DNA of 64,000 nucleotides from a virus. The notes below the pieces were generated by a model that did not search any database, was not told the DNA's origin, and saw only the letters and a list, made by a program, of their open reading frames with translations. Shown one piece after another: positions 10,226 to 32,550 of this stretch. The position numbers and the translations under genes are program-made. How positions within the stretch are numbered: position 1 is the stretch's first letter; every line of letters starts with the position of its first letter. The DNA lies in the IMG/VR virus record IMGVR_UViG_3300034102_002416; one strand, written 5' to 3'.

Positions 10226-10393
10226 TTATCCTTTTGATACGATAGACCAAATCGTGCCAGTAAGTGTAATTACACCACCAACTATTTCTGTTACTACGGT
10301 TTCATCAACTAATCCACGCATAACAAAGATACCTCCAACAAATGTTAAAGCATGACGAATAATTCCTAAGATTTGTTCTTTTGTAAGTTTCAT
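10226..10393 (-). CDS. Small two-TM membrane protein, putative holin
   Basis: Not in track; MKLTKEQILGIIRHALTFVGGIFVMRGLVDETVVTEIVGGVITLTGTIWSIVSKG; AAAGGA RBS and late motif at 10408-10415. Confidence 0.65.
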   Translation of the reverse strand: MKLTKEQILGIIRHALTFVGGIFVMRGLVDETVVTEIVGGVITLTGTIWSIVSKG

Positions 10394-10419
10394 ATTTTCC
10401 TTTTTATATAAATATTTGA

Positions 10420-11229: not shown

Positions 11230-11425
11230 TTCCTATATTCCTTTTTTTATACATTGGCCAATTTTTTGTTCGTTCATTCAACCATTCTCGTCGATCATCA
11301 CACCCACAATCTTCATCTAATAACTCAGCAATTCGTTTTGCAAGTTGATCTAATCCTGTAGCTGATGTTATCCGTTTAATATCATCACCTAAACCTCTAC
11401 TACCATTTTGCATCGATTGCTCCAT
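11213..11425 (-). CDS. Small phage protein (GLGD...CGC motif)
   Basis: GLGDDIKRITSATG...DCGCDDRREWLN. Confidence 0.65.
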   Translation of the reverse strand: MEQSMQNGSRGLGDDIKRITSATGLDQLAKRIAELLDEDCGCDDRREWLNERTKNWPMYKKRNIGNGNNK

Positions 11426-12491
11426 TTTGAATTGAGTTTTGTAATTGCATGATCATAGTTTGCCATTGTGCCGTATTTGGTATTTCAAATACTTGTGTGC
11501 CCGGATATTGATATTGTTGTCCCGGTTTCATTAAAATCATATGACCCGTGTCATCGATTCCTAAAACATCATATTCAACATGTTCCATTGTGATGCCTCC
11601 ATATGGCGTAGGTATCATTGTGCATTTACCTGGATGTCTCCATTGCCCCATCGGATCGGTAACTGCTTGTGTCTGTGTTAACACAGAATCCCACCCGGTA
11701 GTGTCTAACTTCTTTTTACCAGTTACATGCATTATCAATGATTCAGTAACATCTGCATGTTTATTTTCTTGAATTATATCCATAACCTCTTGTTTAACAA
11801 TGTTTTCTATAGATAACCTACCTATAGATATCGTTTGCTCTAATCTGTTTAAACGTTCGATATATCCTTTATTACGTAGATGTTTAAATGCCATGTTTTC
11901 TACAGAATATTCACCATTAGCATCTAAACCAGACTGTCGTAATTTTCTTAATTTATTTTTAATTTTATTAATTTTCTTTATAGCAGTTGGATCTGTTTCT
12001 TTAATTGAATCGATTTCATATTCATATGGTTTTGCTTTTTGTTCAATAGCATCATCATCAATCGATATAGTATCAGCCGTTGGTTTATGCAGCCATTTAT
12101 TTTTTAACACAGAAAACACACCAACCGTTGAATGTAGGTTCTCATTCGAGTCTTGTGCATATAACTCAATATCCATTCCTTTATATTTTAACGGATATTT
12201 TAAATTCCATACACTCTTTTTTGCATGCATATAATTACTTACTAGATGCATGTTATCGTTAACCTGTAAATAATTTATAACAACATGTAAATCGATATCG
12301 CTAAATTTAGTCCAATTATAGTTTGCACTACTTCCAATTAATATAATATCTAATACCGGAGCATCTGTTTCTAGAAATTTATAGAATGATCTCGCAATTT
12401 TCAATAAACCTAATCGCAATTTAGGATGTAACTCGGTACCATTCCAAAGTTTTGGATTTAGTGTAGACTGAGTTTCATATTCATTAATCAT
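11400..12491 (-). CDS. Pol-beta-superfamily nucleotidyltransferase fused to a C-terminal domain
   Basis: IGSSANYNWTKFSDIDLH (GS...DxD) and IELYAQD third acidic residue. Confidence 0.75.
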   Translation of the reverse strand: MINEYETQSTLNPKLWNGTELHPKLRLGLLKIARSFYKFLETDAPVLDIILIGSSANYNWTKFSDIDLHVVINYLQVNDNMHLVSNYMHAKKSVWNLKYPLKYKGMDIELYAQDSNENLHSTVGVFSVLKNKWLHKPTADTISIDDDAIEQKAKPYEYEIDSIKETDPTAIKKINKIKNKLRKLRQSGLDANGEYSVENMAFKHLRNKGYIERLNRLEQTISIGRLSIENIVKQEVMDIIQENKHADVTESLIMHVTGKKKLDTTGWDSVLTQTQAVTDPMGQWRHPGKCTMIPTPYGGITMEHVEYDVLGIDDTGHMILMKPGQQYQYPGTQVFEIPNTAQWQTMIMQLQNSIQNGAIDAKW

Positions 12492-14266: not shown

Positions 14267-14291
14267 GATACATCGTATTTATTAATAAATA

Positions 14292-14642
14292 TCACGTTTT
14301 CCAAAAGAGCTGTACTAATATTAGTGCAAATGCTAATAATAAAGATATTGCAGTTTTTGCATTAATTGCCTCATCACGAAAAATATATGTCATTAGTGTG
14401 AATATGAATATACCAGCACAAAATGAAATAAAACGTCCGGGCCAAAATAACCCACCGAATCCATACACAACATAACTAGTTGCTTCCATAAACAACCACG
14501 TGATAGGAACTCCTAGTAACATTAAAGCCCATCGCCATTCTTTTGCCCATGGCCAAATTAATGGACCATTAACTTGTATCCAAACTATAATTTGACCTAA
14601 AATAAATAGTAAAAATGATAATAGTATGTAACGATAATTCAT
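14292..14642 (-). CDS. Four-TM small membrane protein (SMR/DMT-like size)
   Basis: 116 aa with four hydrophobic segments. Confidence 0.65.
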   Translation of the reverse strand: MNYRYILLSFLLFILGQIIVWIQVNGPLIWPWAKEWRWALMLLGVPITWLFMEATSYVVYGFGGLFWPGRFISFCAGIFIFTLMTYIFRDEAINAKTAISLLLAFALILVQLFWKT

Positions 14643-14694: not shown

Positions 14695-15111
14695 TTATCG
14701 TTCGCCTTTATGTGTATCAAATTTATCTAGAATTTGATTCAAAAGGTTTGCTTGAATGAATCCAGCCATGGATGCATTTTTTAATGCACTTAATAATTCA
14801 AAAACAATAAATGGCACCAATATTGTTTCACTTAACCAACCGGTGCCAGGAAATCCTTTTTCCACTAGCAATAACACTGTTAAAATTACAATCCATGTTA
14901 CTGTGGTTCGCAATACTTTTAGTGCTTTAAATGTTTGGAAGCCTTCTCGTTTAACGCCAGCAACTATTCCAAAAAACCCGTCGAACAATACCACAGCAAT
15001 TAATGCCAAATATTGTTCGACGTGATCTAAGGTTAGATTGTAAAAATATGTACTAATAAATGTCATGGTTGTTGTTAGTACAAGTGATATTGCTAATGGG
15101 ATTGATTTCAT
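14695..15111 (-). CDS. Phage holin (holin family 4-like)
   Basis: Several TM segments, D.F.G and ELLSALKNA motifs; start overlaps the endolysin stop. Confidence 0.75.
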   Translation of the reverse strand: MKSIPLAISLVLTTTMTFISTYFYNLTLDHVEQYLALIAVVLFDGFFGIVAGVKREGFQTFKALKVLRTTVTWIVILTVLLLVEKGFPGTGWLSETILVPFIVFELLSALKNASMAGFIQANLLNQILDKFDTHKGER

Positions 15112-15929
15112 TATTTTATATCATTGGATTCAATTAATGTGTATGAAAATTTATTTCCGTTTGCTGCACGAGCTATACGACAAATTGCCATAAACTCTTC
15201 GAAGTCTTTAGAACGTTTAAATACTTGGCATCCTTCTGACCAATTCTCTACAAATGTTGAGTCTGCACCAGCTTTATGAATATTGATTCCAAATACACCT
15301 TCTTGAATTTTATTTTCATCATATGTCATATCCTTGTTCGGATCACGGAATACTTTAACTGCTTTATTTTGTCCTAAGGCTTCATATTTCCCAGCATGTA
15401 ATCGCATAATATGAGAATCAATATATTGTCCTTCTACTAATCGTGCTACACCCGCTTTGTTTCCATATTTCATAACGCCCTTTGTTCCAGGATCTGTTGT
15501 TGCTGGCCAGCAATGGAATTTTTCTTCACCACCAACTGTGTAAGATAATGTGATATGGTCGTCAAACAAATTTGTTACTTTGTGACCTGTGTCGGAATTT
15601 CGAGCTCCTACAATGTTTAATAGATAATCTTTACCTTCAAACCATTTGTATCCTTTTGCAATAACTGCATTCTTAACTTGCTCTAATGTATATTTAGGAG
15701 CAGCAGTTGTTTTAGAAGCTGGTTTTGCTGCAGTTTTTGATTCTACAACTATTCCCATTTTAGCTAATGTAGCAGGTCCTACTACTCCATCTGCTTTTAA
15801 ACCATTCTTAGTTTGCCAAGCTTTTACTGCTTCTTCTGTCTTAGGGCCAAAGTTTCCTACTGGATCTACACCTAATACTACTTGAATTTTCTTTACAACT
15901 TCGTTGTTGTCACCTCTTTTAAGTACCAT
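15111..15929 (-). CDS. Endolysin-like: peptidoglycan-binding domain plus YkuD/L,D-transpeptidase-like catalytic domain
   Basis: LKRGD...GNFGPKTEEAVKAWQ...GLKADGVVGPAT (PG_binding_1); GINIH...WSEGCQV His/Cys motif. Confidence 0.8.
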   Translation of the reverse strand: MVLKRGDNNEVVKKIQVVLGVDPVGNFGPKTEEAVKAWQTKNGLKADGVVGPATLAKMGIVVESKTAAKPASKTTAAPKYTLEQVKNAVIAKGYKWFEGKDYLLNIVGARNSDTGHKVTNLFDDHITLSYTVGGEEKFHCWPATTDPGTKGVMKYGNKAGVARLVEGQYIDSHIMRLHAGKYEALGQNKAVKVFRDPNKDMTYDENKIQEGVFGINIHKAGADSTFVENWSEGCQVFKRSKDFEEFMAICRIARAANGNKFSYTLIESNDIK

Positions 15930-15965: not shown

Positions 15966-17081
15966 TTATTTTTTTTCTTTACTGCCTTCTTGTGTAGCAT
16001 ACTTGATACCCATGATTGTACCAACTATTGAAAAGGCATTTGTTAATAATACACTAAACATATTACTCCATGTAGAGCCTATTATTTGTGTGTCTTGGTT
16101 TGTTATAATAGCCATCCAGTATAATGTTGTTGTTACAACTCCTACTCCTACTATAACAGCTAATGCAACTTTAACAATTATTTTTATTAGCTCACTTTGG
16201 CTTTTTTTCATCATGACATCTAAGTCATTTAGTGCTGCATCTTTTTCTATCTCAATTGCATTCTTAAGCTTTTGTGAGTTATCAAGTTCTACCTGTAAAT
16301 TTGTTGTTAAGTCGTCGATTTTCTTCTTATTGTTTACAGCCTCAGTGACATCGGTTGCAATTTTAACTACATCAGTGATATTTCCTTTACTGTCTAAAAC
16401 AGGATTGTAAGATGCTTGTAAATAAACAGTAGATCCATCTACTTTTCTTCTTTCAAATATTCCATCAAAATACTTACCTTTTCTTAAACTATCCCAAAAC
16501 TTAGTATAGTCATCAGATTTAGAATACTCATAGCTAACAAAAATGCTGTGATGTTTTCCAATGACTTTAGCTTTTTCATTAGCTTTATAACCCATGGTTT
16601 CTAAGAATATAGAATTTGCATCTGTTATAAATCCATCAATGTTAAAACTAATAAGAGCTGTACTTCTGTTGATGGCATCTATCTGTTTCTTGCTATTGAC
16701 AATTGCACTAATGTCAGTAGCAACTTTCATTATCTTGGTAATCTTGTTGTCTTCATCAAAAATAGGGTTATAAGTTGCTTGAAGATTGATAAGACTTCCA
16801 TCTTTTCTTCGTCTTTCAAACTCACCTTGATAATACTTACCACTTCTTAAGATATCCCAAAACTTTTCATACTCATATGACTTTGCGTAATCTTCACATA
16901 CAAACATGCTATGGTGTTTACCGATAAGATCTTCGTGTTTACCTATACCATAACCCATTGCTTCCAAAAAAATGTCATTAACGCCTAATATGATACCATT
17001 AAGATCGAAATAAATAAGAGCATTACTCCTATTAATTGCTTCTATCCTGCTTAATAACTCTTCTTTTGATAGGTTTTTCAT
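15966..17081 (-). CDS. Tandem-PAS sensor protein with coiled coil and two C-terminal TM helices
   Basis: Two ~120-aa repeats AINRS.ALI.F...G.I...N.IFLE.MGY...IGKHHS.FV...FWD.LR.GKY..G.FERR..DGS...LQA.YNP, typical of BdlA-type chemoreceptor PAS domains; no MCP or kinase domain. Confidence 0.85.
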   Translation of the reverse strand: MKNLSKEELLSRIEAINRSNALIYFDLNGIILGVNDIFLEAMGYGIGKHEDLIGKHHSMFVCEDYAKSYEYEKFWDILRSGKYYQGEFERRRKDGSLINLQATYNPIFDEDNKITKIMKVATDISAIVNSKKQIDAINRSTALISFNIDGFITDANSIFLETMGYKANEKAKVIGKHHSIFVSYEYSKSDDYTKFWDSLRKGKYFDGIFERRKVDGSTVYLQASYNPVLDSKGNITDVVKIATDVTEAVNNKKKIDDLTTNLQVELDNSQKLKNAIEIEKDAALNDLDVMMKKSQSELIKIIVKVALAVIVGVGVVTTTLYWMAIITNQDTQIIGSTWSNMFSVLLTNAFSIVGTIMGIKYATQEGSKEKK

Positions 17082-17134: not shown

Positions 17135-17395
17135 TTAACCTAGTTCTTCTTCGTTATTATTTTGATTGTTGTTATTTTTACCTGCAAATTTTTCTAAACC
17201 TGCAATACCCAAACTACCTAAAGTAACAATAACAAATGAATTGTAAATGTATTCGTTAAGTTTCAACTCATTACCAAAGTAACCAGTTACTAAATCAACT
17301 ATCATTGCCAATGTCATTACTGCGAAAGACATAAATCCAATGATTGTTTTTTCATTGTAATCGTTTGAGTTTTTAAAAATTTCATTAAACCTCAT
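17135..17395 (-). CDS. Two-TM membrane protein (holin-like)
   Basis: 86 aa, two hydrophobic helices, polar tail; late motif at 17457-17464. Confidence 0.6.
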   Translation of the reverse strand: MRFNEIFKNSNDYNEKTIIGFMSFAVMTLAMIVDLVTGYFGNELKLNEYIYNSFVIVTLGSLGIAGLEKFAGKNNNNQNNNEEELG

Positions 17396-17467
17396 AGCAT
17401 TTCCTTGTTTTTATTTGTTTAAAACAATAACCTATTCAATTTAAAGTAACTTTTTAATAAATATGTA

Positions 17468-18610
17468 TTAGATTATATTAATAAGATTTTTTTCGTATGT
17501 TTCTAATGAATATACAGATATTTTGAGATTGCCTAATTGAAAGTCACCAATTTCACCTGAATCCTGTATAATAGATGCTAATTGTTGAATATACATGAAA
17601 TCCTGGTTTGTTAATTGTAGTTTATCAAATTCTACTACAATATCATTTTCACCATGCGGATCATTGTAGCCGGTATGAAGTACTCGTTTTGTTAGATCGA
17701 ATTTAGTATTCGGTTGTTCTCGATCAATGTAATGAGTTGTTATAACCTGCATATTATCTTCAATATATATTCTATCACACCACGGTTCTAATAGTTCTAA
17801 TACATCTGATGTGCAATTTTTTACTATGAATGCAATGTTATATTTTGGAGCTTCGGATCTACTTCCCCATTTTCTAACGTAGTTTCGATTGGATGTCAAT
17901 TCTATTTGTTGAGTTCTGGTTTGATATTCTTCTGAAAATCTAGATGTCTTACTTACAAAATGATAACATATCGCATCCAATGCCGTAAAACATTTCATTC
18001 CTAACATTTTCCAACGACAAATTAAATCATCATCTTCACAAAACATTGGATTGAATAAATTATCCATACCTCCAATTTCTAACAACTTGATTCTAGGCAT
18101 ACACATAAAAAACGTAATACCAGATTCGGTTTTATCAGCATATTGTTTTTGTTTGATTTGTACAAACTCATATAAAGCATCTTTATCGAACGCCTCTATA
18201 GATGTACCTAAATCATATATCAATTTACCAGGACGTTCATGATCTGCGAATATAGGCGGCTCTATTGTGGTATATGACACTATATTTTCAGAGTTTACAT
18301 GTTTTTCTAAATTTTCAATGAATCCCGGGGCTAAAACGATATCGTTATGCAAATATGCTACATAATCTTTAGTTGCTAATTCAGCAGCTTTATTAAACGT
18401 ATCGGAAAATGTTTTAGATTCATCCGAATAAAAATACTTAACATTATTATCCGTTAATGTTTCTAACCATTCGTGAGTCCCATCTGTTGATCCGTAACTT
18501 ACAAAACATAATTCTGTATCTGGATAAAGTTCTCGAGTTGTTTCATAAAAATGTTTGTTGTAGTCTAAATTATTCTTTAATCCTACTAATAATGATATGT
18601 TATTTTTCAT
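17468..18610 (-). CDS. Glycosyltransferase family 2
   Basis: GSTDGT, YLHNDIV and EDDDL GT-A motifs. Confidence 0.85.
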   Translation of the reverse strand: MKNNISLLVGLKNNLDYNKHFYETTRELYPDTELCFVSYGSTDGTHEWLETLTDNNVKYFYSDESKTFSDTFNKAAELATKDYVAYLHNDIVLAPGFIENLEKHVNSENIVSYTTIEPPIFADHERPGKLIYDLGTSIEAFDKDALYEFVQIKQKQYADKTESGITFFMCMPRIKLLEIGGMDNLFNPMFCEDDDLICRWKMLGMKCFTALDAICYHFVSKTSRFSEEYQTRTQQIELTSNRNYVRKWGSRSEAPKYNIAFIVKNCTSDVLELLEPWCDRIYIEDNMQVITTHYIDREQPNTKFDLTKRVLHTGYNDPHGENDIVVEFDKLQLTNQDFMYIQQLASIIQDSGEIGDFQLGNLKISVYSLETYEKNLINII

Positions 18611-19506
18611 AATTCTTGTATTCTTTTTTGTATGTAAAAATCAATATTTTGATTAAAATTAGTTCGTTGTTCTGATACATCAGTCTTAACGATATTATTT
18701 CTATAATAACTAGAAAATTCTTTTCCAACTAACGGTCCGGTTCCATATTCAAATATAATTTGATTATCTAGTCGATATTGTTGAAAATCATATCCATGTT
18801 GTTTGGCAATTGTACTAACTACAAGTCCATAATAATCCCATCCTCCATACCCAACCCAATCTTCTTGAACTGGTGCTAATTTTTCGTAATATGATTTACT
18901 ATATAAATCGAACCATCCTGCCCATTTTTCTTGATTAATTGGTGTTAATTTAACCGGATCTGATGTTGTTTTAATAAAATAATCTACATCAAATATATCG
19001 GTGGTGTGTTCCCAACCATAATGCGGGCCAATTGCAAATTTGGGATGCGTTAATATTTCCCAACTTTCATCCCACATTCTACATATTTGCGGAGTAATTA
19101 CGAAATATTCATTTTTTATTGTAGTCGCCGCTTGTATGATATATTCTAATAAATGTTCATGAAAATACATATCTGGACAAATTGTTATATAATAATCTAC
19201 CGTTTCATGCATAGCAGATTTTTGTAAATCCAAATGTCCGTATAAAATATCTCCTTCAATAATTTTTGGATTATGAATATAATCATTCAATAAAATAGAA
19301 ATATTTTCATACTTTTGTATAAAAAAATCTTTTGGAAGTTTTGTTTGTTCCCAATCGATTAGTTTGTCAGATAAATTTAAAACGGAATCAATAATTATTG
19401 TATGTTCATTTGATAAAAAATACTTAGATTTTTTTAATTGTATAAATGAAAGTAATGCATAGTCAATTTCCCATGGCATTATATGATACATTATTTTTAT
19501 ATTCAT
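18607..19506 (-). CDS. Hypothetical protein, possible GT-A fold glycosyltransferase
   Basis: ICPDMYF and GYGGWD motifs; cluster context. Confidence 0.5.
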   Translation of the reverse strand: MNIKIMYHIMPWEIDYALLSFIQLKKSKYFLSNEHTIIIDSVLNLSDKLIDWEQTKLPKDFFIQKYENISILLNDYIHNPKIIEGDILYGHLDLQKSAMHETVDYYITICPDMYFHEHLLEYIIQAATTIKNEYFVITPQICRMWDESWEILTHPKFAIGPHYGWEHTTDIFDVDYFIKTTSDPVKLTPINQEKWAGWFDLYSKSYYEKLAPVQEDWVGYGGWDYYGLVVSTIAKQHGYDFQQYRLDNQIIFEYGTGPLVGKEFSSYYRNNIVKTDVSEQRTNFNQNIDFYIQKRIQEL

Positions 19507-20273
19507 AGCATTTCTTTTAACTTATTATACGTTTCTTCTATTCCGCGTTTTAATCCAATAAAATTTACATCTAAAGGATAATATTGACCTACATAGCCAG
19601 ATATATTATTTCCTACTGATATCGGAACTTCATATGTATCTAAAGTATTAATAATTTTAGCAATATTATAAAGATATAATTTCAGACCTGAATATATACA
19701 ATCTAAAGTTTTTGGTAAATTATTATTATTAATATAATATTCTATTAAAGTAACCAAATCTTTCATATAAATAAAATCCATTAATTTATTTTCGTATATT
19801 TGGATCGTTTCTTTGTTAATATAACGTTTAATATTTGATTTAATAAATCTGGTATCTAATTCATTTTCATCGAACACTCCAAATATTCTTAAATTATAAA
19901 AATTTGGTTTATCGTTAATCGATTGACTAATAATAAATTTGCTTAAACCGTACGGAGTCGAATGAGTTAGTTCAGCACCAGATCCTAAATTTATAAATTT
20001 ATTATAATTAGTTTGGTGATTTAAAAGATTATAGTATAATTTTATATTTTGATCTATAATTGAACTGTCTTCTAGTTTGTTTCTGTGACCGCCAACGATT
20101 GCAGTATGAATTACTACATCAAAATATTTTCCGGAAAACCAATTATTTGTAGCTATCGAATCGGTTAAATCGAAATCATCTCTTCCAATGCAAGTAACCT
20201 CATATTTAGAATGTAAATATGAATACAAACTTCGTCCTATGTAACCATTTTTACCTGTAATTAATATTTTCAT
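19503..20273 (-). CDS. NAD-dependent epimerase/reductase (extended SDR)
   Basis: ILITGKNGYIG and YGLSK catalytic motif. Confidence 0.85.
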   Translation of the reverse strand: MKILITGKNGYIGRSLYSYLHSKYEVTCIGRDDFDLTDSIATNNWFSGKYFDVVIHTAIVGGHRNKLEDSSIIDQNIKLYYNLLNHQTNYNKFINLGSGAELTHSTPYGLSKFIISQSINDKPNFYNLRIFGVFDENELDTRFIKSNIKRYINKETIQIYENKLMDFIYMKDLVTLIEYYINNNNLPKTLDCIYSGLKLYLYNIAKIINTLDTYEVPISVGNNISGYVGQYYPLDVNFIGLKRGIEETYNKLKEML

Positions 20274-21268
20274 TTATTCTTCAGCTTTTGTGCTACTTCT
20301 AAAATAAGATCTTCTTGTCCTGCAACTAATTTTCTATTTCCTAACTCAAAAATAAGAGATGAATATTCAATTCCATATAATTTAGATGCTTTAATTATCG
20401 GCTTCTCAAATCCGGAAAATAATTTTGTTAATCCAGTTAAAACATTAATGGGCGTGGATACGGGATGTGTTGGAACTAAATAATCCATTACACGATCTGC
20501 TTCTTTAATCGTTTCTTCAAAACTAATTCCGGTAGAAAAATTACTACGTTCAAACACAGGTAATAATAATTCTAAAGGTGCATTACCAGCTCCAGCCCCA
20601 AATCCTCGAATACACGCATCAATCAATTCAGCTCCATTTTCGGCAGCTACTAATGAATTAGCTACAGCACATCCTAAATTATTATGCGCATGAAACCCAA
20701 CTTTAATATTTAATTGTGATTTTAACAAACTAATACGTTCTTTTACGTCAGCAGGTAAATAAGTGCCTGTCGAATCCATAATGATAACAGCTTGGGCGCC
20801 ATATTCTTCCATGATCTTAGCTTGTTCTGCTAACTCAGCTGGTGTGATTAAAGCAGACATCATTAATACCCCATATACCGTTTTACCGGTCTTTGCTAAA
20901 TATTCTATGTGGGATTTTGATAAAGTTGCTTCAGTACAATGTGTTGCGACACGAAATACATCGACTCCATAATCGATAGCTAACATTGCGTCATCAATAG
21001 TAGATAAGCCTGGAATCGTATGAACTCCTAATTTTGATGATTTAAGATTTTTTCTAGCAATAGTTAACATTTCTTTGTCGGTATTAGGAGATTTTCCTAT
21101 CAATAACGACGATGCTGCTAAACCATTACCGTGCCCTACTTCTACAACAGGTATTCCAGCTTTATCCGCAAATTGACAATATCTTTCGATGCTGTCTAAA
21201 CTAATAGTATGCTTAACGCTATGATTTCCGTCTCTAAGACTAGAATCCGTAATGATTATATTTTTCAT
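20270..21268 (-). CDS. dmpG: 4-hydroxy-2-oxovalerate aldolase
   Basis: DSSLRDGNH, EVGHGNGL, ATHCTEA, GFHAHNNLG, GAGAGN, VAGQEDLI. Confidence 0.9.
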   Translation of the reverse strand: MKNIIITDSSLRDGNHSVKHTISLDSIERYCQFADKAGIPVVEVGHGNGLAASSLLIGKSPNTDKEMLTIARKNLKSSKLGVHTIPGLSTIDDAMLAIDYGVDVFRVATHCTEATLSKSHIEYLAKTGKTVYGVLMMSALITPAELAEQAKIMEEYGAQAVIIMDSTGTYLPADVKERISLLKSQLNIKVGFHAHNNLGCAVANSLVAAENGAELIDACIRGFGAGAGNAPLELLLPVFERSNFSTGISFEETIKEADRVMDYLVPTHPVSTPINVLTGLTKLFSGFEKPIIKASKLYGIEYSSLIFELGNRKLVAGQEDLILEVAQKLKNK

Positions 21269-21270
21269 AG

Positions 21271-22128
21271 TTAATGTTTTAATTTTTCTGTAATCTTAAT
21301 TGCCGCACAGTTAATAATATCTAAGTTACCGGCATATTCTGGCAGATACTCTCCAGTTCCCTTTACCCTAATACTTAATACAACTACTCCGTTTTCATTT
21401 AGTGTAGGCGGTAATACTAGTTCGTAATATGGTATATAAGTTTTTAATTCTTCTATTTTTTCTGCAATCTTTTCTGTTAAATTATTAAAATCAATTTCTT
21501 TAGTTTTAATAAAAATAGTAGTTTGCATATCAACGCATGGTTCTGCGGGATTCAAATTAAGAATAACTTTAGTTTTTCTACATCCGGTGAACTTAGTTAT
21601 TGCATTTTTTGTAGTTTTAATGTAATTGTCAACATTGATTCTCGTAGCCATTCCGGCACTTTTAGATGCAATTTGAGACACAATTTCTACGTATTCTAAT
21701 CCTTTACAATGTTTTGATATTAAATGTAACATTGGCATTGATGCTTGTCCCCCACACGTAATCATGTTAACATTATCATCCGTTAATATAATATCTCCAT
21801 TAACATCAGGTACGCACATATCCCCAACTTTTGCTGGAGTTAAATCAATTACTTTGATTCCTTGTTCTTTAAAGATTTTAGCATGTTCTTTAGCATCTGT
21901 AGCATTAGTACAATCATATACCACTTCGCAACAATTAGGATTATTTTTGAAATAATCAATTCCTTGATCTGATATTTTAATTCCTTTTGATTTAGCAATA
22001 CTCATCGTGCCAGAATCCAATCTTCTTCCTACGAATGCTACTACATCAATAAAGTCAGTTTTAATTGACTTTAACATGAGATCGGTACCGATATTACCTG
22101 TACCTAAAATTGCTACTTTTATTTTCAT
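21271..22128 (-). CDS. dmpF: Acetaldehyde dehydrogenase (acylating)
   Basis: ILGTGNIGTDL, IDLTPA, NMITCGGQ, SAGMATRIN, YAGNLDII. Confidence 0.9.
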   Translation of the reverse strand: MKIKVAILGTGNIGTDLMLKSIKTDFIDVVAFVGRRLDSGTMSIAKSKGIKISDQGIDYFKNNPNCCEVVYDCTNATDAKEHAKIFKEQGIKVIDLTPAKVGDMCVPDVNGDIILTDDNVNMITCGGQASMPMLHLISKHCKGLEYVEIVSQIASKSAGMATRINVDNYIKTTKNAITKFTGCRKTKVILNLNPAEPCVDMQTTIFIKTKEIDFNNLTEKIAEKIEELKTYIPYYELVLPPTLNENGVVVLSIRVKGTGEYLPEYAGNLDIINCAAIKITEKLKH

Positions 22129-23876
22129 CTCGTTATACTATTACTTCGTTCATTAATTCCGGAAACCATCGCCGCTTTAATATCTTCTAAAGGCAACAAT
22201 GGCGACATTTCTTCTAGTAATCCAGCTTGAATTGTATTGTCATTATTTTTGATACCTTTTACTTTAGGTATAAATTCTTGATTCGGATCCATAAATACTT
22301 CTAAAATACTTTGATTGGTAGCTGCTAAAAAATCATCAACATTATCTAATGTATAATAATCATATCCAAATGCATCTGCTACTTTTTTATATTCTGGAAG
22401 TTCTACGCCTGTTGATTTATCAACGCAAGTTTTCGTTCCACCAAATAACATGTTTTGCGTATGCTTGATCATTAAGTAGCCATCATTGTTAAAGATAACA
22501 ATTTTAACTGGCAAATTATGAGTTTTAATTGTTTGAAGTTCTTGTAAATTCATCATCATACCTCCATCACAATTCAAACATAATACTGACTTATTACCAA
22601 ATCCAGCGCCAACCGCCGCGGCAAGACCATATCCCATTTCGCCTAAACCTAATGATGTAAACATCTTTTGATTTGGTTTGATATTAAATCCATAAAAGCC
22701 ACTTAATAAAGCAGTTCCCATGTCCGTAACAATTGTATAGTTATCGGGTACTTTGTTTGAGAACCAATCTATAAATGTATATGAATTAGTAGGATCAACT
22801 AAATGTTCAGGCATTACTCTAGGATATTTGTTTCGAATGTTATCGCAATATAATTTCCAATCCGTAGTGTCTACTTTAATTAAATCAACTGAAATTAAAT
22901 CATATAAGATGTTTCCGATATCTTCATTAATTGGTAATCCATCAAATTTATTTGTTTCTGTTGAGTCTATATCAATATGAACTATTGTTGCATTAGGTGC
23001 AAAATCTTTTCTAGAATATCCTGTTTGTAATAGAGATAATCTACTTCCCATTACAATTAATAAATCGCAATTTTGTACTATAAAATTGGATGAACGTTGT
23101 CCTTGAACACCTGAACGACCGTAGTTATTTGAATGAGTTTCTTCAAGTAAATCTACTGCTGACCAAGTTAATATTGTGGGTAAATTATGTTGCTCAATAA
23201 ATTGTTTAAATAATTTTTCTGATTGAGATAATTTAACTCCATGTCCTCCAATTACAACTGGTCTTTTACTTTGGTTAAGTAAATCTATTAAGTCTAATGT
23301 TTTTGGACTTAACATTGGAGTGTTTAATTTTTTAAATGGGGTGATAGGTTGTTCTTCAACCATTTGTCCTTGAATATCAAATGGTATTTCTAAAAATACA
23401 GGACCTGGTCTATTGATTTGTGTTGTTTCAAATGCCTTTTCAAATGTTTCGTATACATTTTCTTTAGTGATTCGAACAGACATTTTTGTATGTTTTGAAA
23501 ATGTATCTACTGAATCATATCCTTGAATACCGTACATTCTCATATCTGAATATTCATTAATATAATATGATTGTTCTTGTCCCGATATAATAATTCCAGG
23601 AATTGAATCTGCCCAATTGGATAAAATACCAGTAAATGAATTCGAAGATCCTCCGCCGGCTGTAACTAGTGATGCAGCCAGTTTTCCAGTAGATCTATAA
23701 TATGCTCCCATTGCCATAACGGCAGCTTGTTCATGATGTACAGCGATTAATTTAATATTAGATTTGTTATTTATGGAATTGTATATATGAGAATTAGCAG
23801 ACCCGATAATACCAAATACAACTTCGATATTATTCTTTTCTAAAAATTCTGCTATAACATCACTAACTTTTACCAT
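22125..23876 (-). CDS. Thiamine-diphosphate-dependent enzyme (acetolactate synthase-like; YerE-type sugar-branching enzyme)
   Basis: HHEQAAVMA, GPVFLEIPFDIQ, GLGEMGYGL, DGGMMMNLQEL...NNDGY TPP motif; inside sugar cluster. Confidence 0.85.
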   Translation of the reverse strand: MVKVSDVIAEFLEKNNIEVVFGIIGSANSHIYNSINNKSNIKLIAVHHEQAAVMAMGAYYRSTGKLAASLVTAGGGSSNSFTGILSNWADSIPGIIISGQEQSYYINEYSDMRMYGIQGYDSVDTFSKHTKMSVRITKENVYETFEKAFETTQINRPGPVFLEIPFDIQGQMVEEQPITPFKKLNTPMLSPKTLDLIDLLNQSKRPVVIGGHGVKLSQSEKLFKQFIEQHNLPTILTWSAVDLLEETHSNNYGRSGVQGQRSSNFIVQNCDLLIVMGSRLSLLQTGYSRKDFAPNATIVHIDIDSTETNKFDGLPINEDIGNILYDLISVDLIKVDTTDWKLYCDNIRNKYPRVMPEHLVDPTNSYTFIDWFSNKVPDNYTIVTDMGTALLSGFYGFNIKPNQKMFTSLGLGEMGYGLAAAVGAGFGNKSVLCLNCDGGMMMNLQELQTIKTHNLPVKIVIFNNDGYLMIKHTQNMLFGGTKTCVDKSTGVELPEYKKVADAFGYDYYTLDNVDDFLAATNQSILEVFMDPNQEFIPKVKGIKNNDNTIQAGLLEEMSPLLPLEDIKAAMVSGINERSNSITR

Positions 23877-24820
23877 ATAAATTTATTTCTATAATATTTT
23901 ACAATTTCTTTTAACTCAACATCAAATTGTTTCCTCGGTTCCCAGCCTAGAGATCTTAGTTTAGAATCATTTAATGAATATCTAACATCCATACCTGGCC
24001 TATTATATGATAAATCAATATATTTTTCAATATCATTTATATCAATATTATTTATAATAAGAAGTTTTTTAACAGTTTCCAAGTTGCTTTGTTCAAACCC
24101 ACCACATATATTAAAAATTTCATTTTCGACGCCAGATTCTATGATTGTAATTATAGAATTTGCAGTATCTTGTGCATGTAGCCAATTTCTAACGGGAGTA
24201 CCACCATTATGTAATGGTATTTTTTTTCCCAATGTTAATAATTTGCACGCTTTAGGAATTAGTTTTTCTACATACTGACCAATGCCGTAATTATTTGTAG
24301 GACGAACAATTACATACGGTACATTATGAGTACGTTGCCAAGCTAATATTAACATATCGGCTGCAGCTTTTGTTGCTGAATAAGGATTAGAAGGTTTTAA
24401 TAGATGTTCTTCTGTATGTTCGCCAGATTCAATATCTCCATATACTTCGTCTGTACTAAAATGTAATAATATTGGTTTTTTAGAATGTTCCCCTCGATGA
24501 TTCTTTATAAGTTCTAATAAATTATGAACACCATCGATATTTGATTTAATGAATTCAGAACTGCTAACAATTGAATTTCCAACATGTGTTTCTGCTGCAG
24601 TATTAATCACATAATCACAATCATATAAAAATTTTAAATCATTGATATCGCAATGCACAAAAGAAAAATTTGGATATATTTTAAATTCATTTAATACATC
24701 TTTATTTGCAGCATATGTAATTTTATCAACGCCTTTAACATACCAACCTTTTTCTAAACACGTACGTGTCACATAGGATCCTATAAATCCTAAACATCCG
24801 GTCACATAAACTACTTTCAT
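23870..24820 (-). CDS. rfbB: dTDP-glucose 4,6-dehydratase-like
   Basis: TGCLGFIGS, DKITYA, AAETHV, STDEVYG, PYSATK, NNYG..Q..EKLIP. Confidence 0.85.
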   Translation of the reverse strand: MKVVYVTGCLGFIGSYVTRTCLEKGWYVKGVDKITYAANKDVLNEFKIYPNFSFVHCDINDLKFLYDCDYVINTAAETHVGNSIVSSSEFIKSNIDGVHNLLELIKNHRGEHSKKPILLHFSTDEVYGDIESGEHTEEHLLKPSNPYSATKAAADMLILAWQRTHNVPYVIVRPTNNYGIGQYVEKLIPKACKLLTLGKKIPLHNGGTPVRNWLHAQDTANSIITIIESGVENEIFNICGGFEQSNLETVKKLLIINNIDINDIEKYIDLSYNRPGMDVRYSLNDSKLRSLGWEPRKQFDVELKEIVKYYRNKFIW

Positions 24821-25650
24821 ACAAATCTTTCTTTACATCGTTCTACAAACTTATTAACTTGTTTAATCATATCTTCTTCAGCTATTTCAATTTCTTTATA
24901 TAACAATGGCAATGTTTCTATTGCTCTGTCGATATCGGTTTCGCCGAAAGCTACCCCATATGGATTAAACCTAGATCCCATTAACCATTCTTCTTTTGTT
25001 TTTGTTCCGTCTGGGATTACTATACTTATACAACCACACATTGCTGCTTGTATAGATAAAAAAGTATAATTATCATAACAATAAAATTTTTTAGTTGCAT
25101 TAAATATACTTGATATATTTGATAAATTTCCAGCATCATGAAATTTAATTTCAATCGAGTCAGCTGGGTGTACTAATGATTTTGGATTTCCTTTTCGTAT
25201 AGAATAGCAACTTCCGTTTCTAGATACATTTTTATTTTGAAATATATTCGAATGAAATTCTGTTATCATTAATTGATTTTCGCGCGATCCTAATTCGTCA
25301 GTATAATAATAATCCATATACCAATATATTAAATCCGTATCTGAATATGTATTATAATCTGTTTGATTTGCTGGGCCTAATATCCATCTTACCACATTTT
25401 TTGAATTCAATGGATTATAATGAATTCCTTCCGGATATATTACAATTGCATCAGAAATGTTATCAAATATTTCTTGAGTTATTAACGGCGTATTGTAATC
25501 GGAACATACATTAAATGTATCTCGTACATGGATTGGCATTAAATAACAAGGATAACCAATTTGGTTTAGTAAATGACATAATTTATGCATTACTTTGATT
25601 CCGCCAACACCCGGATCATAATCATATGTGTAAATTACAAAAGGTTTCAT
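24817..25650 (-). CDS. WavQ-like putative glycosyltransferase
   Basis: GGIKVMHKLCHLLN, IYPE...NPL...VVRWIL, AAMCGC. Confidence 0.55.
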   Translation of the reverse strand: MKPFVIYTYDYDPGVGGIKVMHKLCHLLNQIGYPCYLMPIHVRDTFNVCSDYNTPLITQEIFDNISDAIVIYPEGIHYNPLNSKNVVRWILGPANQTDYNTYSDTDLIYWYMDYYYTDELGSRENQLMITEFHSNIFQNKNVSRNGSCYSIRKGNPKSLVHPADSIEIKFHDAGNLSNISSIFNATKKFYCYDNYTFLSIQAAMCGCISIVIPDGTKTKEEWLMGSRFNPYGVAFGETDIDRAIETLPLLYKEIEIAEEDMIKQVNKFVERCKERFV

Positions 25651-26393
25651 ACTAAATTGTGCGTATTTTCATTTAAAAACCAATAAACATTATCAGAATA
25701 TCGTTCTTCTCCAATACAATGCATAAAATCTATTTGATTTGGTAATTCAATAATTCTTTTTTTGTCTAATGCATGTCCTATAGCGGCTGGGGCTGATAAA
25801 TTTGCGATTAACATGTTACATGAATTAATAGAAGTAAACCATTCATCTAAAGTTGTTACCTTGTAAAATTCAACTAAATGTTTATACGGAAATTCATTAT
25901 AATCATTAATGGTAGACGAAATAAATAATACGTTGTCTTTACCATAATGATCAATTAATCGTTCATATGGAAAATCTGGATTACGCATTACATTAGCTTT
26001 ACGTTGTATTAATATTTTGTTTTGTAAAATGGTATCGAGTTTATTATACGTTAACCATTTATAGTCGCCATTTATCGTAAATTTAAACATGTTTTGATAA
26101 ATATTTGACCAACACGTTTGATATAATAGTTCTGAGTCAATATATCGTCCTAAATCAATATATTCCGCCGGAACTTCATGTTTAACGTAATTATCATATA
26201 TTCCGAAACTTTTAATATATGGCTGTTGCATAATTATATCATACAACTCTTGATATGTATTTTCAATTCCAAATTCCCATCCTATGTCGTACATGTATAA
26301 ATCAGCCGGCTCATTATGAAGTTCGCATAAATTTTTTACAGCAAATAATGAATGAACAAAATCACCTAATTTGCCTCCCATTAAAAACTTCAT
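25647..26393 (-). CDS. GT9-like glycosyltransferase
   Basis: N-terminal GKLGD and C-terminal IANLSAPAAIGHAL. Confidence 0.5.
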   Translation of the reverse strand: MKFLMGGKLGDFVHSLFAVKNLCELHNEPADLYMYDIGWEFGIENTYQELYDIIMQQPYIKSFGIYDNYVKHEVPAEYIDLGRYIDSELLYQTCWSNIYQNMFKFTINGDYKWLTYNKLDTILQNKILIQRKANVMRNPDFPYERLIDHYGKDNVLFISSTINDYNEFPYKHLVEFYKVTTLDEWFTSINSCNMLIANLSAPAAIGHALDKKRIIELPNQIDFMHCIGEERYSDNVYWFLNENTHNLV

Positions 26394-26740
26394 AATTTTA
26401 TCTCAGTATATTCAGTTTCGAAAAATTTTTCTTGTATTGCTATTTTTTTTAAATACCGGTCGTAATTTGCTTTAGCAGTTATAGTAGATAATTCAGATTC
26501 ATGTGCTCTGTCGACTAATTCAAACACTAATGCATTGGTATTTCGTAACATTTCATATTCGATGCTAGTTTTTATTTGATTAAATTTATCGATTCCTATT
26601 TGATTTATTATTTCATCACTTAATAACTGATATGAAGTGTTTAATTTTTTATTGACAATGCCGGTACTGTTTTCTAATTTTACTTCATAAATTGATAGTA
26701 AATCAAATACATACGATTCATCTAAACTAATCTTTAACAT
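26390..26740 (-). CDS. Small hypothetical protein (DUF6165-like)
   Basis: FDLLSIYEVK...N.DR...K..I pattern; glycan-cluster context. Confidence 0.45.
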   Translation of the reverse strand: MLKISLDESYVFDLLSIYEVKLENSTGIVNKKLNTSYQLLSDEIINQIGIDKFNQIKTSIEYEMLRNTNALVFELVDRAHESELSTITAKANYDRYLKKIAIQEKFFETEYTEIKL

Positions 26741-26746
26741 ATAACG

Positions 26747-27367
26747 TTATTTATTTTTAATATTTTCTATAATATGAAGTCCAGTGCATTTTTCAAAGTA
26801 ATTATTCGATATAAATTCATTTGAAAAATATTTTGGATTAATCCACCAATCTTCGAAGTAATTAGTATCATCCCATAATCCTAAACTACCATTTGGTGCT
26901 TTAACATCGTCGCATAATCGAATATATCCTTTTGATGATAAAATATCATATGATTTTGTTTTAGACTCATTGCCGCCAGCATAAAAATCATGTTCAAATG
27001 TCATTATTTTAAATTCATACGAATCAAATGGAAAATTTTCTAATCCAACGATTGATGTTGGATCGATATCTAATGATATGTAATCAATTACGGTTGGCAC
27101 TTCATAAAAATTAAAAATATCTCGTAATTCCGTTTGAGGTATAAGAACAGTTAATACATCCGAATTTATACTTACATTACGACGATTTGTTGCTGATGCT
27201 GGGTCTCCGTCAATACATACGCCTTTCCAACCAGCTTCTTCTAGAAGCAATGTATTACTATTGATTCCAGTGTGATCAAATCCGGCGCCAATATCTACAA
27301 AAAACCCGGCGTTCCCAATAAGTTTTAGTGCAAATTGATCTTGGTATACTTGTGAATATGTTTTCAT
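26747..27367 (-). CDS. FkbM-like SAM-dependent methyltransferase
   Basis: YSQVYQD, FFVDIGA, SNTLLLE..GWKG, IDYISLDID. Confidence 0.8.
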   Translation of the reverse strand: MKTYSQVYQDQFALKLIGNAGFFVDIGAGFDHTGINSNTLLLEEAGWKGVCIDGDPASATNRRNVSINSDVLTVLIPQTELRDIFNFYEVPTVIDYISLDIDPTSIVGLENFPFDSYEFKIMTFEHDFYAGGNESKTKSYDILSSKGYIRLCDDVKAPNGSLGLWDDTNYFEDWWINPKYFSNEFISNNYFEKCTGLHIIENIKNK

Positions 27368-28284
27368 GCTGTTACGAATTCTATTAAACGTTTAAATGTA
27401 TCAATTAAATTTTCCTGAGACCATTCTTTCCGCAATTTTTCTACATAGTTAGTTGTTTTATTAAATTCTAATATTTCTGGTAATGTATGTAATGCCATAT
27501 CTATATTAGGATCGTACACCGGATTAAACATACCTACATTGGTAATTGCTAATGGCGTATTAGTAGATATTACATAATCAGGAACTCCAGAAATGTCGCG
27601 GCCATATCGATATGCAAATGCCATTAAATCATTGTTATAACAAAAATCTAAAATTTCTTCATTTGAAAGAAACTCAGTAGTAATATTTAATTTAATTCCA
27701 GGTTTTAACAGTACCGATCTCATTCTTTCAATATCTGCATTTTGACCGATACCGTCATTATCGCCATAATATGCTCTAGTAATATGAATATTAATTTGTG
27801 CATTTTCAAATTGATCGTTTACTAATTTTACTAAGTCATCAAAACCTTTACGTTCTCCAGCAAACCCAAATGAGCCAATATGTACAACATCGTGTTTTGG
27901 TTTAGGTTTACTAAGATCGTATTTATATAATGGTCTCGTAAAACCATTTTTTAATGGATCTTGATCAATATAATAATCAAACGTAGCAGTATGAAAATCT
28001 GGCGTATGCATTATTGTTACTGTATTTAAATCCGGAAAATTATTTTTTACATGTTGAAGAAGTCCATGATTTAACCAACCATATGGCCCAGTAGGACCAC
28101 CTTCAATCCAATTAAACAACAATACGTTAACTTGAGATAAATTTAACTGATTAAAATCTTGCAACGTTTCTATTTCAAAATACTCAATATCCAAATCGCA
28201 ATGTTGCAGGGTATCCCAGATACGTAACCCGTATTGATACACCCCGCAATTTTTTTGTTTACTATTTATGTAGTATATTTTCAT
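27364..28284 (-). CDS. GT-B fold glycosyltransferase
   Basis: CGVYQY, IGSFGF...KGF, SGVPDY. Confidence 0.65.
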   Translation of the reverse strand: MKIYYINSKQKNCGVYQYGLRIWDTLQHCDLDIEYFEIETLQDFNQLNLSQVNVLLFNWIEGGPTGPYGWLNHGLLQHVKNNFPDLNTVTIMHTPDFHTATFDYYIDQDPLKNGFTRPLYKYDLSKPKPKHDVVHIGSFGFAGERKGFDDLVKLVNDQFENAQINIHITRAYYGDNDGIGQNADIERMRSVLLKPGIKLNITTEFLSNEEILDFCYNNDLMAFAYRYGRDISGVPDYVISTNTPLAITNVGMFNPVYDPNIDMALHTLPEILEFNKTTNYVEKLRKEWSQENLIDTFKRLIEFVTA

Positions 28285-29516
28285 TATTTTCCAATTATCT
28301 CAAACTTAGGACATGGAACGATAAATTTACCACCATTTGACAAATATTCATCTTCTCTTTGTACAAATTCAGATATAAAATGCCACGGAAGTACTAACAT
28401 ATAATCTGGCTTCATTGCTCTAACTTCTTCTTCCGATAAAATAGGAATATTAGTTCCAATTGTTTTTAATCCAAATTTATATGGGGAACGTTCTGCAATT
28501 GCATCTATCATTGTATGATCCAATCCAAACCATTGTAATAATGTATTTCCTTTTGTCGATGCGCCATATCCGCAAATTACTTTACCTTTAGCTTTTTCTT
28601 GTTTAATAAAGTTTACGGTTTGTTCTTTAAGTTCTTCAATATCCGACTGAAACTTTTTCCATATATTTAAATCATTCATATTATAGAATGTAGTTTCATA
28701 TTCTAGTAACGAATCTACTCTAAATTTACATACATCTCTTAATGGACTAGTACCAAATGATGTAACGTCAGCTGTTTCTTTTTGTACATAAACTCGGAAA
28801 CTACCTCCATTAACATCATTTAAACTGCAGTCGACTATTTTTAATCCGTGACTCTCAAATAATTTTTTAAATGAACCAATTGAATGATAATATGCGTGTT
28901 CGTGACAAATATTATCAAATGCCAATTGTTTAATCATTAATGGAGTATATGACAATTGTAATACCCATATTCCATTATCATCTAATATTTTACAAACATC
29001 ATTAATAAAAGGATGCGGATCTAATAGATCGTAAAACATAGCAATCGTCGTTATAACTTTGACTTTTTTATCGCCATACCCCGTACGTTGATATGCGTCG
29101 TAACTAAAATAATCTTGTACAATCGTAGCTACTTTAGATGATTCGTTAACAAAAGTATCATCTGCAGGATCGATACCTATTTTACTATAAGTATCAGGTA
29201 CTTGCTTTAATAAAGTTCCATCATTACATGCAATATCTAACCATATGTCACCTGATTGATGTTTTACTCGAGATGTTATTTCATCTACAATGTTTCCTAA
29301 TTCTTTAGTCATAGTAGCATTAATTCCGGAACGATACCAATACTTACCCCACATCGTTTCATTTGGTGGCATTCCCGTTAATCTAGCAGCGCCAATTTCA
29401 GTGTTTAATACTAAATCTAAACTATATTTTTCTCGGCCGGTATAGTCGGATTCTGATTTAATAAAATCCGAAACATAATGTTCGCCTAAATTTACAACTT
29501 TGATGTTATTTTCCAT
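28284..29516 (-). CDS. NDP-hexose C-methyltransferase (C3-methyltransferase family)
   Basis: YWYRSG, LDIACNDG, FDNICHEH, NGGSFR, GYGASTKGNTLL, LPWHF, GGKFIVP. Confidence 0.85.
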   Translation of the reverse strand: MENNIKVVNLGEHYVSDFIKSESDYTGREKYSLDLVLNTEIGAARLTGMPPNETMWGKYWYRSGINATMTKELGNIVDEITSRVKHQSGDIWLDIACNDGTLLKQVPDTYSKIGIDPADDTFVNESSKVATIVQDYFSYDAYQRTGYGDKKVKVITTIAMFYDLLDPHPFINDVCKILDDNGIWVLQLSYTPLMIKQLAFDNICHEHAYYHSIGSFKKLFESHGLKIVDCSLNDVNGGSFRVYVQKETADVTSFGTSPLRDVCKFRVDSLLEYETTFYNMNDLNIWKKFQSDIEELKEQTVNFIKQEKAKGKVICGYGASTKGNTLLQWFGLDHTMIDAIAERSPYKFGLKTIGTNIPILSEEEVRAMKPDYMLVLPWHFISEFVQREDEYLSNGGKFIVPCPKFEIIGK

Positions 29517-29520
29517 ATAT

Positions 29521-30498
29521 TTACTTTATATTATTTTTTAATAAATTAATATCATTAGTTACCATTATATTAACCATTTGTTCCAAACTGGTTTTAGGTT
29601 CCCATCCTAATTTTTCTTTTGCTTTTGATGCATCGCCTAATAAACACATCGGATCTACTGGACGTAATAATTTACTGTCAAATTTAACAAATTTACTCCA
29701 ATTATCAATTCCAATACACGCAAATGAATAATCTAAAAATTCTTTAATTGAATATGTTTTACCAGTTGCTAAAACAAAATCTTCCGGAGTATCTTGTTGA
29801 AGCATCATCCACATTCCTTCTACGTAATCAGGCGCATATCCCCAATCTCTTTTAGATTCGATATTTCCTAATGTTATATGATCTGCTAATCCTAAATGTA
29901 TACGAGCAACTCCATCAGTAATTTTTCGTGTTACAAATTCTACACCCCTACGTTCTGATTCATGATTGAATAAAATTCCATTTACTGCAAACATACCATA
30001 ACTTTCTCGATAGTTTTTAGTAATCCAATACGCATATAATTTTGCTACACCGTATGGCGAACATGGATGAAAATCTGTTAATTCATTAGCAGTTCCACCT
30101 TTTTTACCAAACATTTCAGATGACGATGCTTGATAAAATTTAGTGTTTTTATTTCCATATTCGCGAATAGCTTCTAAAACGCGTAATGCACCTAAACCGG
30201 TTATATCTGAAGTTTGTTCCGGTGTTCCCCAACTTTCTCCAGCAAAGGATTGTGCTCCTAAATTATAAACTTCATGCGGTTCGCTATCTTTAACTGCGCG
30301 AACTAATGAATTTTGATCCGATAAATCTCCTTTCAACATATGAATTTGATCGGATACTTTGAATAAATTCGGAGTATATGGTGTACTTTTTCTTCGTTCT
30401 AATCCAAATACTTCATAATCTTTTGATAATAAAAATTCGGCTAAATGAGATCCATCCATCCCGCCGATACCTGTAATTAATGCTCGTTTCTTTTTCAT
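29521..30498 (-). CDS. gmd: GDP-mannose 4,6-dehydratase
   Basis: ALITGIGGMDGS, YNLGAQS, FYQASSSEMFG, SPYGVAK, LFNHES, FVTRKI, RDWG. Confidence 0.9.
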   Translation of the reverse strand: MKKKRALITGIGGMDGSHLAEFLLSKDYEVFGLERRKSTPYTPNLFKVSDQIHMLKGDLSDQNSLVRAVKDSEPHEVYNLGAQSFAGESWGTPEQTSDITGLGALRVLEAIREYGNKNTKFYQASSSEMFGKKGGTANELTDFHPCSPYGVAKLYAYWITKNYRESYGMFAVNGILFNHESERRGVEFVTRKITDGVARIHLGLADHITLGNIESKRDWGYAPDYVEGMWMMLQQDTPEDFVLATGKTYSIKEFLDYSFACIGIDNWSKFVKFDSKLLRPVDPMCLLGDASKAKEKLGWEPKTSLEQMVNIMVTNDINLLKNNIK

Positions 30499-31883: not shown

Positions 31884-32527
31884 AATGTATTGTAAAAATT
31901 ATTTTGTTTTTCTTGTCGGTCAATTGTTTTTGGGTGATATAAAGCAAAATATTCTACATCTGGTAGAATAGTATATGTTTTGAACCCATCCAACCGCTCA
32001 TGTACTTTATTTATCCATTTAATTTCAGGTACATTTCTCCAAATACGCCATTGAAAATCAGGCCAATTAACCCAACCTTTTTCGTTTACTTTCCAGCCCC
32101 ATTGTTGAATATGTTCAGGTGTTAAACCCTCAACTGTGTTTACTCGTGGTACTAAGAAAATATCCATTTCAGGATTTAATTCTAAAAGCTCATGTAAATG
32201 TTTAATTAAATCCTCTGATGGGTATTCATCAGCATCAATTTGGAAGATATAATCTCCGGTACATTGTTGGGTTAAATGATTTTTAAATGCTGAGAAATCG
32301 CTATTTAATGGGTTAAATATAACTCGGCAATGCCCTTGTTCATTATGTTTCATGATATACTGCCAAACTAATTTTTTAGCTTCTGACATACTATTAAGAT
32401 CAGCTACAGACAAATCCATTTGAATAACGATTTCGTCATGAGGTTGTTTATGTTCTAACAAAAACGCTAACAATCGTTGAATTTCTATAAATTCATCACA
32501 AACGGTTACAGCATAACTTATTTTCAT
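31880..32527 (-). CDS. Glycosyltransferase family 2
   Basis: FQIDADE DxD motif, WPDFQWRI, VHE. Confidence 0.8.
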   Translation of the reverse strand: MKISYAVTVCDEFIEIQRLLAFLLEHKQPHDEIVIQMDLSVADLNSMSEAKKLVWQYIMKHNEQGHCRVIFNPLNSDFSAFKNHLTQQCTGDYIFQIDADEYPSEDLIKHLHELLELNPEMDIFLVPRVNTVEGLTPEHIQQWGWKVNEKGWVNWPDFQWRIWRNVPEIKWINKVHERLDGFKTYTILPDVEYFALYHPKTIDRQEKQNNFYNTL

Positions 32528-32550
32528 AATATATAATACGTTATTTTAAA

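Follow-up and report, generated by a model that had tools for sequence, protein, structure and literature searches.

A tandem-PAS sensor joined to a membrane hairpin among phage lysis genes: a possible modulator of lysis timing

Introduction

What is a gene for two PAS sensor domains and a pair of membrane helices doing in the middle of a phage lysis cassette? In this article, I will discuss such a gene in a window of 64,000 nucleotides (the whole stretch of DNA that was analyzed), which belongs to a 159,977-base, 95% complete virus record of the T4-like, 160-kb class (IMGVR_UViG_3300034102_002416), and because the major capsid protein of this phage has its best isolate match, at 57.5% identity, in Flavobacterium phage immuto, the host is probably a freshwater member of the Bacteroidota. 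The holin allele is generally taken to determine lysis time, the known exception being lysis inhibition after superinfection; lysis time also sets burst size and therefore shapes phage-driven mortality and carbon turnover. On the minus strand, the order of the genes is the one read in the initial annotation, namely an upstream motif, a gene for an 86-residue membrane protein (here called c1), the sensor-hairpin gene, a probable endolysin gene and a holin gene (Table 1).

Table 1. Features of the lysis cassette and of the sensor-hairpin protein, with positions in the window
Feature	Position	Strand	Description
Upstream motif ATATTTATTA	17455..17464	-	strand-biased; probable phage promoter for the cassette
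c1, 86-residue membrane protein	17135..17395	-	regular lysis-cassette member; candidate holin, antiholin or partner
Sensor-hairpin gene	15966..17081	-	371 residues; PAS-PAS-coiled coil-two membrane helices; from ORF call, Pfam and AlphaFold model
PAS1	16707..17021	-	residues 21-125; chemoreceptor type; His57 and Trp75 invariant
PAS2	16341..16664	-	residues 140-247; internal duplicate of PAS1; His178 and Trp196 invariant
Coiled-coil/signaling helix	16191..16340	-	residues 248-297; runs unbroken into TM1 in the model
First membrane helix (TM1)	16104..16190	-	about residues 298-326; from hydropathy and model
Invariant 33-residue block	15993..16091	-	residues 331-363; second, amphipathic membrane helix (TM2) with a Ser/Thr/Asn/Gly face
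Probable endolysin	15111..15929	-	PG_binding_1 and a phrog_3000 domain with His and Cys residues
Holin	14695..15111	-	Phage_holin_4_1, E 4e-7

The lysis cassette

The c1 protein had been described as a two-helix, holin-like protein, and its hydropathy and position agree with that description, whereas neither Pfam nor PHROG returned a holin family match; it is a candidate for a new holin or antiholin family. Its homolog in immuto (gp192) directly precedes the endolysin and holin genes, and c1 appears on 496 IMG/VR stretches as a widespread, unannotated membrane protein heading lysis cassettes. The catalytic part of the probable endolysin (phrog_3000) has no Pfam match, and its His and Cys residues are, by eye, like those of the YkuD (L,D-transpeptidase) fold. 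In homologous cassettes GH19, GH24 or M15 enzymes stand in its place, and its homologs in crAss-like and Bacteroides phages are annotated as hypothetical; it probably represents an unannotated endolysin family. A second holin-family gene (Phage_holin_10, E 3e-16) lies 4 kb downstream at 10226-10393, and a nucleotidyltransferase gene (phrog_36119, 11400-12491) is kept beside the cassette in related phages. Positions 17468-35306 hold what by eye, from the translations, is a long sugar-modification cluster with glycosyltransferases, epimerases, an aldolase/aldehyde dehydrogenase pair and a thiamine-diphosphate enzyme.

The upstream motif noted at the outset is real, since ATATTTAT(A/T) occurs 52 times on the coding strand and only 4 times on the opposite one, with 37 copies lying within 75 nt of an ATG. 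Copies are found genome-wide, mostly just upstream of genes, including the one that heads this cassette and those at 14283-14292 and 10407-10415, and the motif probably serves the cassette as a phage promoter. Most of the T4 late promoter consensus is present in it as the reverse complement.

A PAS pair joined to a membrane hairpin

The proposed layout of two PAS domains, a coiled coil and two membrane helices was borne out by the open reading frame, by Pfam (PAS_3, E 3e-25, over two stretches of the protein) and by an AlphaFold model (pLDDT 85 overall and 71-77 in the hairpin region), in which PAS domains at residues 21-123 and 142-244 are followed by a single helix (246-326), a five-residue loop and a last helix (332-368). 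No kinase, MCP or cyclase domain was found in the 371 residues, and the label "methyl-accepting chemotaxis protein" carried by database homologs is a mis-transfer, as the protein has no Pfam match to the methyl-accepting signaling domain MCPsignal. The sensor is likely cytoplasmic and the hairpin N-in/C-in. A viral fold search returned a single match, an uncharacterized phage protein, and an Atlas feature search returned none.

The two PAS domains are 54% identical to each other and, as first suggested, form a BdlA-like pair of the chemoreceptor type, with the His and F-alpha Trp of flavin binders; they are 39-47% identical to PAS domains of bacterial chemoreceptors and cyclases, and among solved structures the FAD-binding PAS domains of MmoS, Aer and NifL come closest to them. 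The His/Trp pairs align with Aer and are invariant in both domains. FAD-binding PAS clusters are marked by the F-alpha Trp together with His and/or Asn (PMC10468136), and two of these three marker residues are present here, the third (Asn) being Arg. The AerC chemoreceptor cluster likewise retains Trp and His (PMC10468136), AerC binds FAD weakly in both of its PAS domains through such Trp residues (PMC13401364), and the PAS domains of BdlA and McpS are predicted FAD binders (PMC8694187). Of the two cofactors originally offered, flavin finds its residues in the protein and FAD is the one to favor on these alignments, whereas heme is less likely. Heme has reportedly been observed in BdlA.

Relatives of the protein are encoded on 203 IMG/VR stretches; the best 120 database matches are 86-92% identical over the full length, 80 IMG/VR loci carry a homolog at 81-98% identity, and the family also has one-PAS forms of 250 residues. 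One copy (L160:370-1475, seen in two samples) has a frameshift in PAS2 that splits the gene into frames of 227 and 140 residues. The poverty in CpG that had been seen by eye withstands counting: the observed/expected ratio of 0.34 is the lowest among 94 genes, and 9 CpG compare with 24.1 ± 4.2 expected from the codon use of the genome (second-lowest z of the 94). The gene is also CpG-poorer than its own flanks in 61 of 70 homologous loci, and the flanks in homolog-bearing phages have ratios as low as 0.12; arrival out of a CpG-avoiding phage is a plausible source of the depletion.

Selection on the hairpin

Hydropathy picks out TM1 clearly, with Kyte-Doolittle values that reach 2.4. For TM2 the value is a marginal 1.76; this helix is amphipathic, its helical wheel gathering Ser, Thr, Asn and Gly on a single face, and a basic tail follows it. 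The 33-residue block is invariant in 80 distinct genes, a set of close homologs (77-98%) found with the query's own words, and it is conserved, not invariant, in the wider family. Across these 80 genes, dN/dS is 0.08 for the whole gene, 0.10 for the PAS domains and 0.008 for the block (dS 1.15), such that the strongest purifying signal falls on the hairpin; a DNA- or RNA-level cause was ruled out because synonymous sites vary freely.

Set beside the usual holin build of a small membrane protein with one to four helices and a charged C-terminal tail, the protein has a hairpin and a basic tail, its TM2 is marginal, and its 371 residues are mostly soluble. Neither the protein nor its hairpin matches a holin or antiholin family in Pfam or PHROG; 4 of 65 family members match the phrog_689 "holin" weakly (best E 7e-4). 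The initial expectation that the C-terminal part would lead to stand-alone holin homologs found no support, as a search with it returned no holin family and no sensor-less hairpin was seen among the short matches examined, which were contig-end fragments, mis-called starts of the one-PAS forms or the PAS2 frameshift. Homology of the hairpin to c1 was likewise rejected (hhalign probability 6%).

Relation to a three-gene phage unit

A profile of the last 122 residues was used to search for the same hairpin with other N-termini, and 114 clusters with different N-terminal parts were found. In the commonest form, an unnamed helical domain of about 60 residues lies ahead of the hairpin; in 91 distinct genes this form stands directly behind a lone receiver, which is itself preceded by a histidine kinase. 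The H, N and G boxes of the kinases are intact and their inputs vary (PAS, GAF and membrane), and the receivers retain the acidic pair, Asp, Ser and Lys. In five loci (L175, L200, L220, L236 and L243), two kinases and a conserved exported 200-residue protein stand ahead of the receiver, and the second of these kinases lacks a PAS and carries a signal peptide, which suggests an extracytoplasmic input.

The coiled coil and hairpin of the window protein are homologous to those of this kinase-receiver-hairpin unit. Two further fusions place the hairpin behind a GAF domain (four distinct genes, the GAF being 64% identical to a phage kinase GAF) or behind a NifL/MmoS-type PAS (one contig only, 70% identical to a phage kinase domain), and each of 25 long records carries exactly one hairpin copy. 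No receiver was found in 16 PAS-fusion records (five of them at least 90% complete) or in two complete GAF-fusion genomes, by a search that recovered three of three positive controls, and the 95% complete genome discussed here yielded neither a histidine kinase nor a receiver. In the hairpin tree, the PAS fusions form one clade (100/100) among the three-gene forms and the GAF fusions form another, and in the PAS tree, the PAS domains of the fusions fall within those of the phage kinases and separately from 67 bacterial sequences (SH-aLRT 91-94, not starred), both trees being short (98-111 columns) and unrooted and the bacterial sample being drawn from long proteins only. Taken together, these comparisons show the sensor-hairpin protein to be, by homology, a fused form of the phage three-gene unit, and the idea of a host chemoreceptor with a swapped output gives way, as both halves trace to this unit. 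In the simplest history, the kinase core, the receiver and the receiver-linked domain were likely deleted at least twice, after which the PAS domain was duplicated; this direction is likely rather than proven because the trees are short and unrooted.

Within the genomes searched by sequence, the hairpin was found only in phages. A bacterial origin was considered and rejected, as 400 genomes of the host-like phylum gave no real match to the family and the only candidates were MAG contigs resembling binned phage. Atlas clusters of the sister, three-gene form are 100% viral, and no homolog of the hairpin or the receiver was found in cultured phages.

Linkage to the lysis genes and accessory status

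Linkage was assessed in 50 distinct PAS-fusion loci flanked on both sides by 2.5 kb or more, and a lysin lies no more than three genes away in 45 of them (directly adjacent in 23, with no recognized lysin near the other five loci), such that the synteny survey called for initially upholds the tie to lysis. The linked lysins come from four families (GH19, GH24, M15 and the window type), c1 is within three genes in 41 of the 50 loci, and a holin_4_1 gene is near in 12. When loci were grouped by their shared other genes, the lysin link was kept in 12 of 14 neighborhood groups and across 26 local gene orders, the background being 2.9% of genes in this genome. The carriers are many unrelated freshwater phages that have the gene among their lysis genes. 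For the kinase form the link to lysins is looser (within three genes in 19 of 36 loci, kept in 11 of 22 groups, with some on the opposite strand).

In the reverse test, 30 well-flanked c1 loci included 24 with a lysin, 22 with a holin and two with the sensor, and in immuto c1, the endolysin and the holin are all present, with nothing between c1 and the endolysin and no sensor-hairpin gene. The window gene therefore sits as an insertion in a cassette that is complete without it, and it is not the main holin there; absent from 28 of 30 related cassettes and from immuto, it is accessory and dispensable. This absence and the CpG depletion both support the earlier suggestion of recent acquisition, for this lineage. 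The gene is present in T4-like 160-kb phages, in jumbo phages and in complete 101-123-kb genomes that have no match to this T4-like capsid protein, and it therefore moves between phage groups. One of the last (G007, 101 kb, 100% complete, with the PAS fusion at L074:3296-4114 and no T4-like capsid match) encodes a P-loop ATPase with a weak terminase match and many short proteins with N-terminal membrane helices, and is possibly an unusual, perhaps tailless, large phage.

Proposed function and alternatives

The reading toward which these comparisons incline me, if by a small measure, is that the protein would be an accessory, horizontally exchanged, one-component modulator of lysis timing, placed in the membrane and gated by FAD or redox state, in phages of freshwater Bacteroidota; its cofactor, its partner and the direction of its effect I infer. 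The cytoplasmic PAS pair would bind FAD and report the redox or respiratory state of the host, and the signal would travel down the unbroken helix into the inner-membrane hairpin, where the invariant polar face of TM2 would pack on its own copies or on a conserved membrane partner, such that a small leak is opened or closed, or a lysis protein is held inactive. The block is invariant beside holins that vary, which argues against binding to a specific holin. Lysis time would then be shifted, possibly through the membrane potential, whichever holin the phage has, because holins in general are triggered when the membrane potential collapses. I lean toward hastened lysis on energy loss rather than delay in a healthy host. 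Counting against this reading are the looser lysin link of the kinase form, which calls for the most caution, the dispensability of the gene, the five fusion loci with no recognized lysin near them, the hairpin's want of homology to any known holin or antiholin, the Arg at the third FAD position, and the tendency of accessory membrane genes to gather in lysis regions, which is well known. A wider proposition, which I hold only tentatively and with somewhat less confidence, is that lytic phages of the Bacteroidota own a signaling pathway, two-component and repeatedly fused into one-component forms, that would read host redox and gate a new membrane device setting lysis time.

The strongest alternative, although an unlikely one, is a signal-gated membrane effector against competing phages or the host, acting through superinfection exclusion, through abortive depolarization or on a conserved membrane protein of the host that it controls (a transporter or respiratory complex, for example); its place among the lysis genes would reflect a shared need for late expression and membrane targeting. 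A sensor with two membrane helices is the design of membrane-depolarizing defense effectors, an invariant block beside variable holins fits a conserved host partner, and half of the kinase-form groups lie away from lysins. Detocs, moreover, ties a kinase and receivers to toxic effectors, some of them membrane-spanning (10.1101/2023.01.24.525353). Against this stand the lack of a match to the PADLOC defense models for any form of the family, its absence from the 400 genomes of the host-like phylum, where defense effectors would be expected, and a lysin adjacency that persists through 26 gene orders in unrelated phages.

Considerably less probable is a sensor-gated holin or pinholin whose hairpin oligomerizes into a lytic lesion, as a second, conditional route to lysis. 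The two helices, basic C-terminal tail and polar face do resemble class II holin topology, many fusion loci have no recognized holin nearby, and the weak phrog_689 matches point the same way; however, this cassette already has its Phage_holin_4_1 holin, near-identical cassettes work without the sensor-hairpin gene, the window protein matches no holin family, and its block is invariant, whereas holins diverge fast. Least probable of all is the decoy or sink raised in the initial annotation, in which anchored PAS domains titrate a cofactor or jam host signaling: the protein does lack an enzymatic output domain and its PAS domains do resemble those of bacterial chemoreceptors and cyclases, but this reading is weakened because selection is strongest on the hairpin, when a mere anchor would not be the most conserved part, and it is the sensor that is exchanged (PAS, other PAS, GAF or receiver-linked domain) while the hairpin is kept.

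If the lysis-timing reading is true, lytic phages would read host physiology directly at the membrane through a widespread sensor-gated modulator, providing a direct metabolic sensor for lysis timing that works without transcription. Of the forms, the one-piece protein lends itself most readily to testing, and immuto is a cultured relative with the site empty. The family would also offer a plain example from nature of a two-component unit that has collapsed, more than once, into one-component proteins.

Comparison with known systems

As judged by sequence and literature searches, the sensor-hairpin architecture is new: the hairpin has no holin, PADLOC or Pfam match, no isolate carries it, and a literature search that took in few subscription papers found no description of a phage PAS, kinase or receiver with lysis. 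The CBASS and Pycsar effectors Cap14 and PycTM also combine a cytoplasmic sensor with two membrane helices and are thought to act on membrane integrity, but their ligands are cyclic nucleotides, bound by SAVED or other domains, and they reside in bacterial defense loci; no homology to the window protein was detected. VqmA of vibriophage VP882 is a phage PAS sensor that governs entry into lysis through transcription, and LytSR is a two-component system that governs the antiholin-like LrgAB, again through transcription, whereas the window protein has no DNA-binding domain and its sensor is joined to the membrane part itself.

The tandem-PAS chemoreceptors AerC, BdlA and McpS and the FAD-PAS proteins Aer, NifL and MmoS (PMC10468136, PMC8694187, PMC13401364) are alike in the two N-terminal PAS domains and the His and F-alpha Trp; in contrast, a methyl-accepting or kinase domain is lacking in the window protein, its output is a C-terminal membrane hairpin, and the nearest relatives of its PAS domains are in phage kinases. 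Detocs resembles the three-gene parent unit in wiring a kinase and a lone receiver to a non-transcriptional effector, but it is bacterial and anti-phage and has its effector fused to a receiver (10.1101/2023.01.24.525353), whereas the window protein has no kinase, receiver or PADLOC match. Lysis inhibition in T4, with its holin T and antiholin RI, is similar in that an accessory protein of a lytic phage tunes lysis time to a signal; RI, however, is a periplasmic protein that reacts to superinfection and has its own holin as binding partner (PMC11413866), whereas the window protein, which has no sequence likeness to RI, carries a cytoplasmic PAS pair as its sensor and belongs to a family whose neighboring holins vary.
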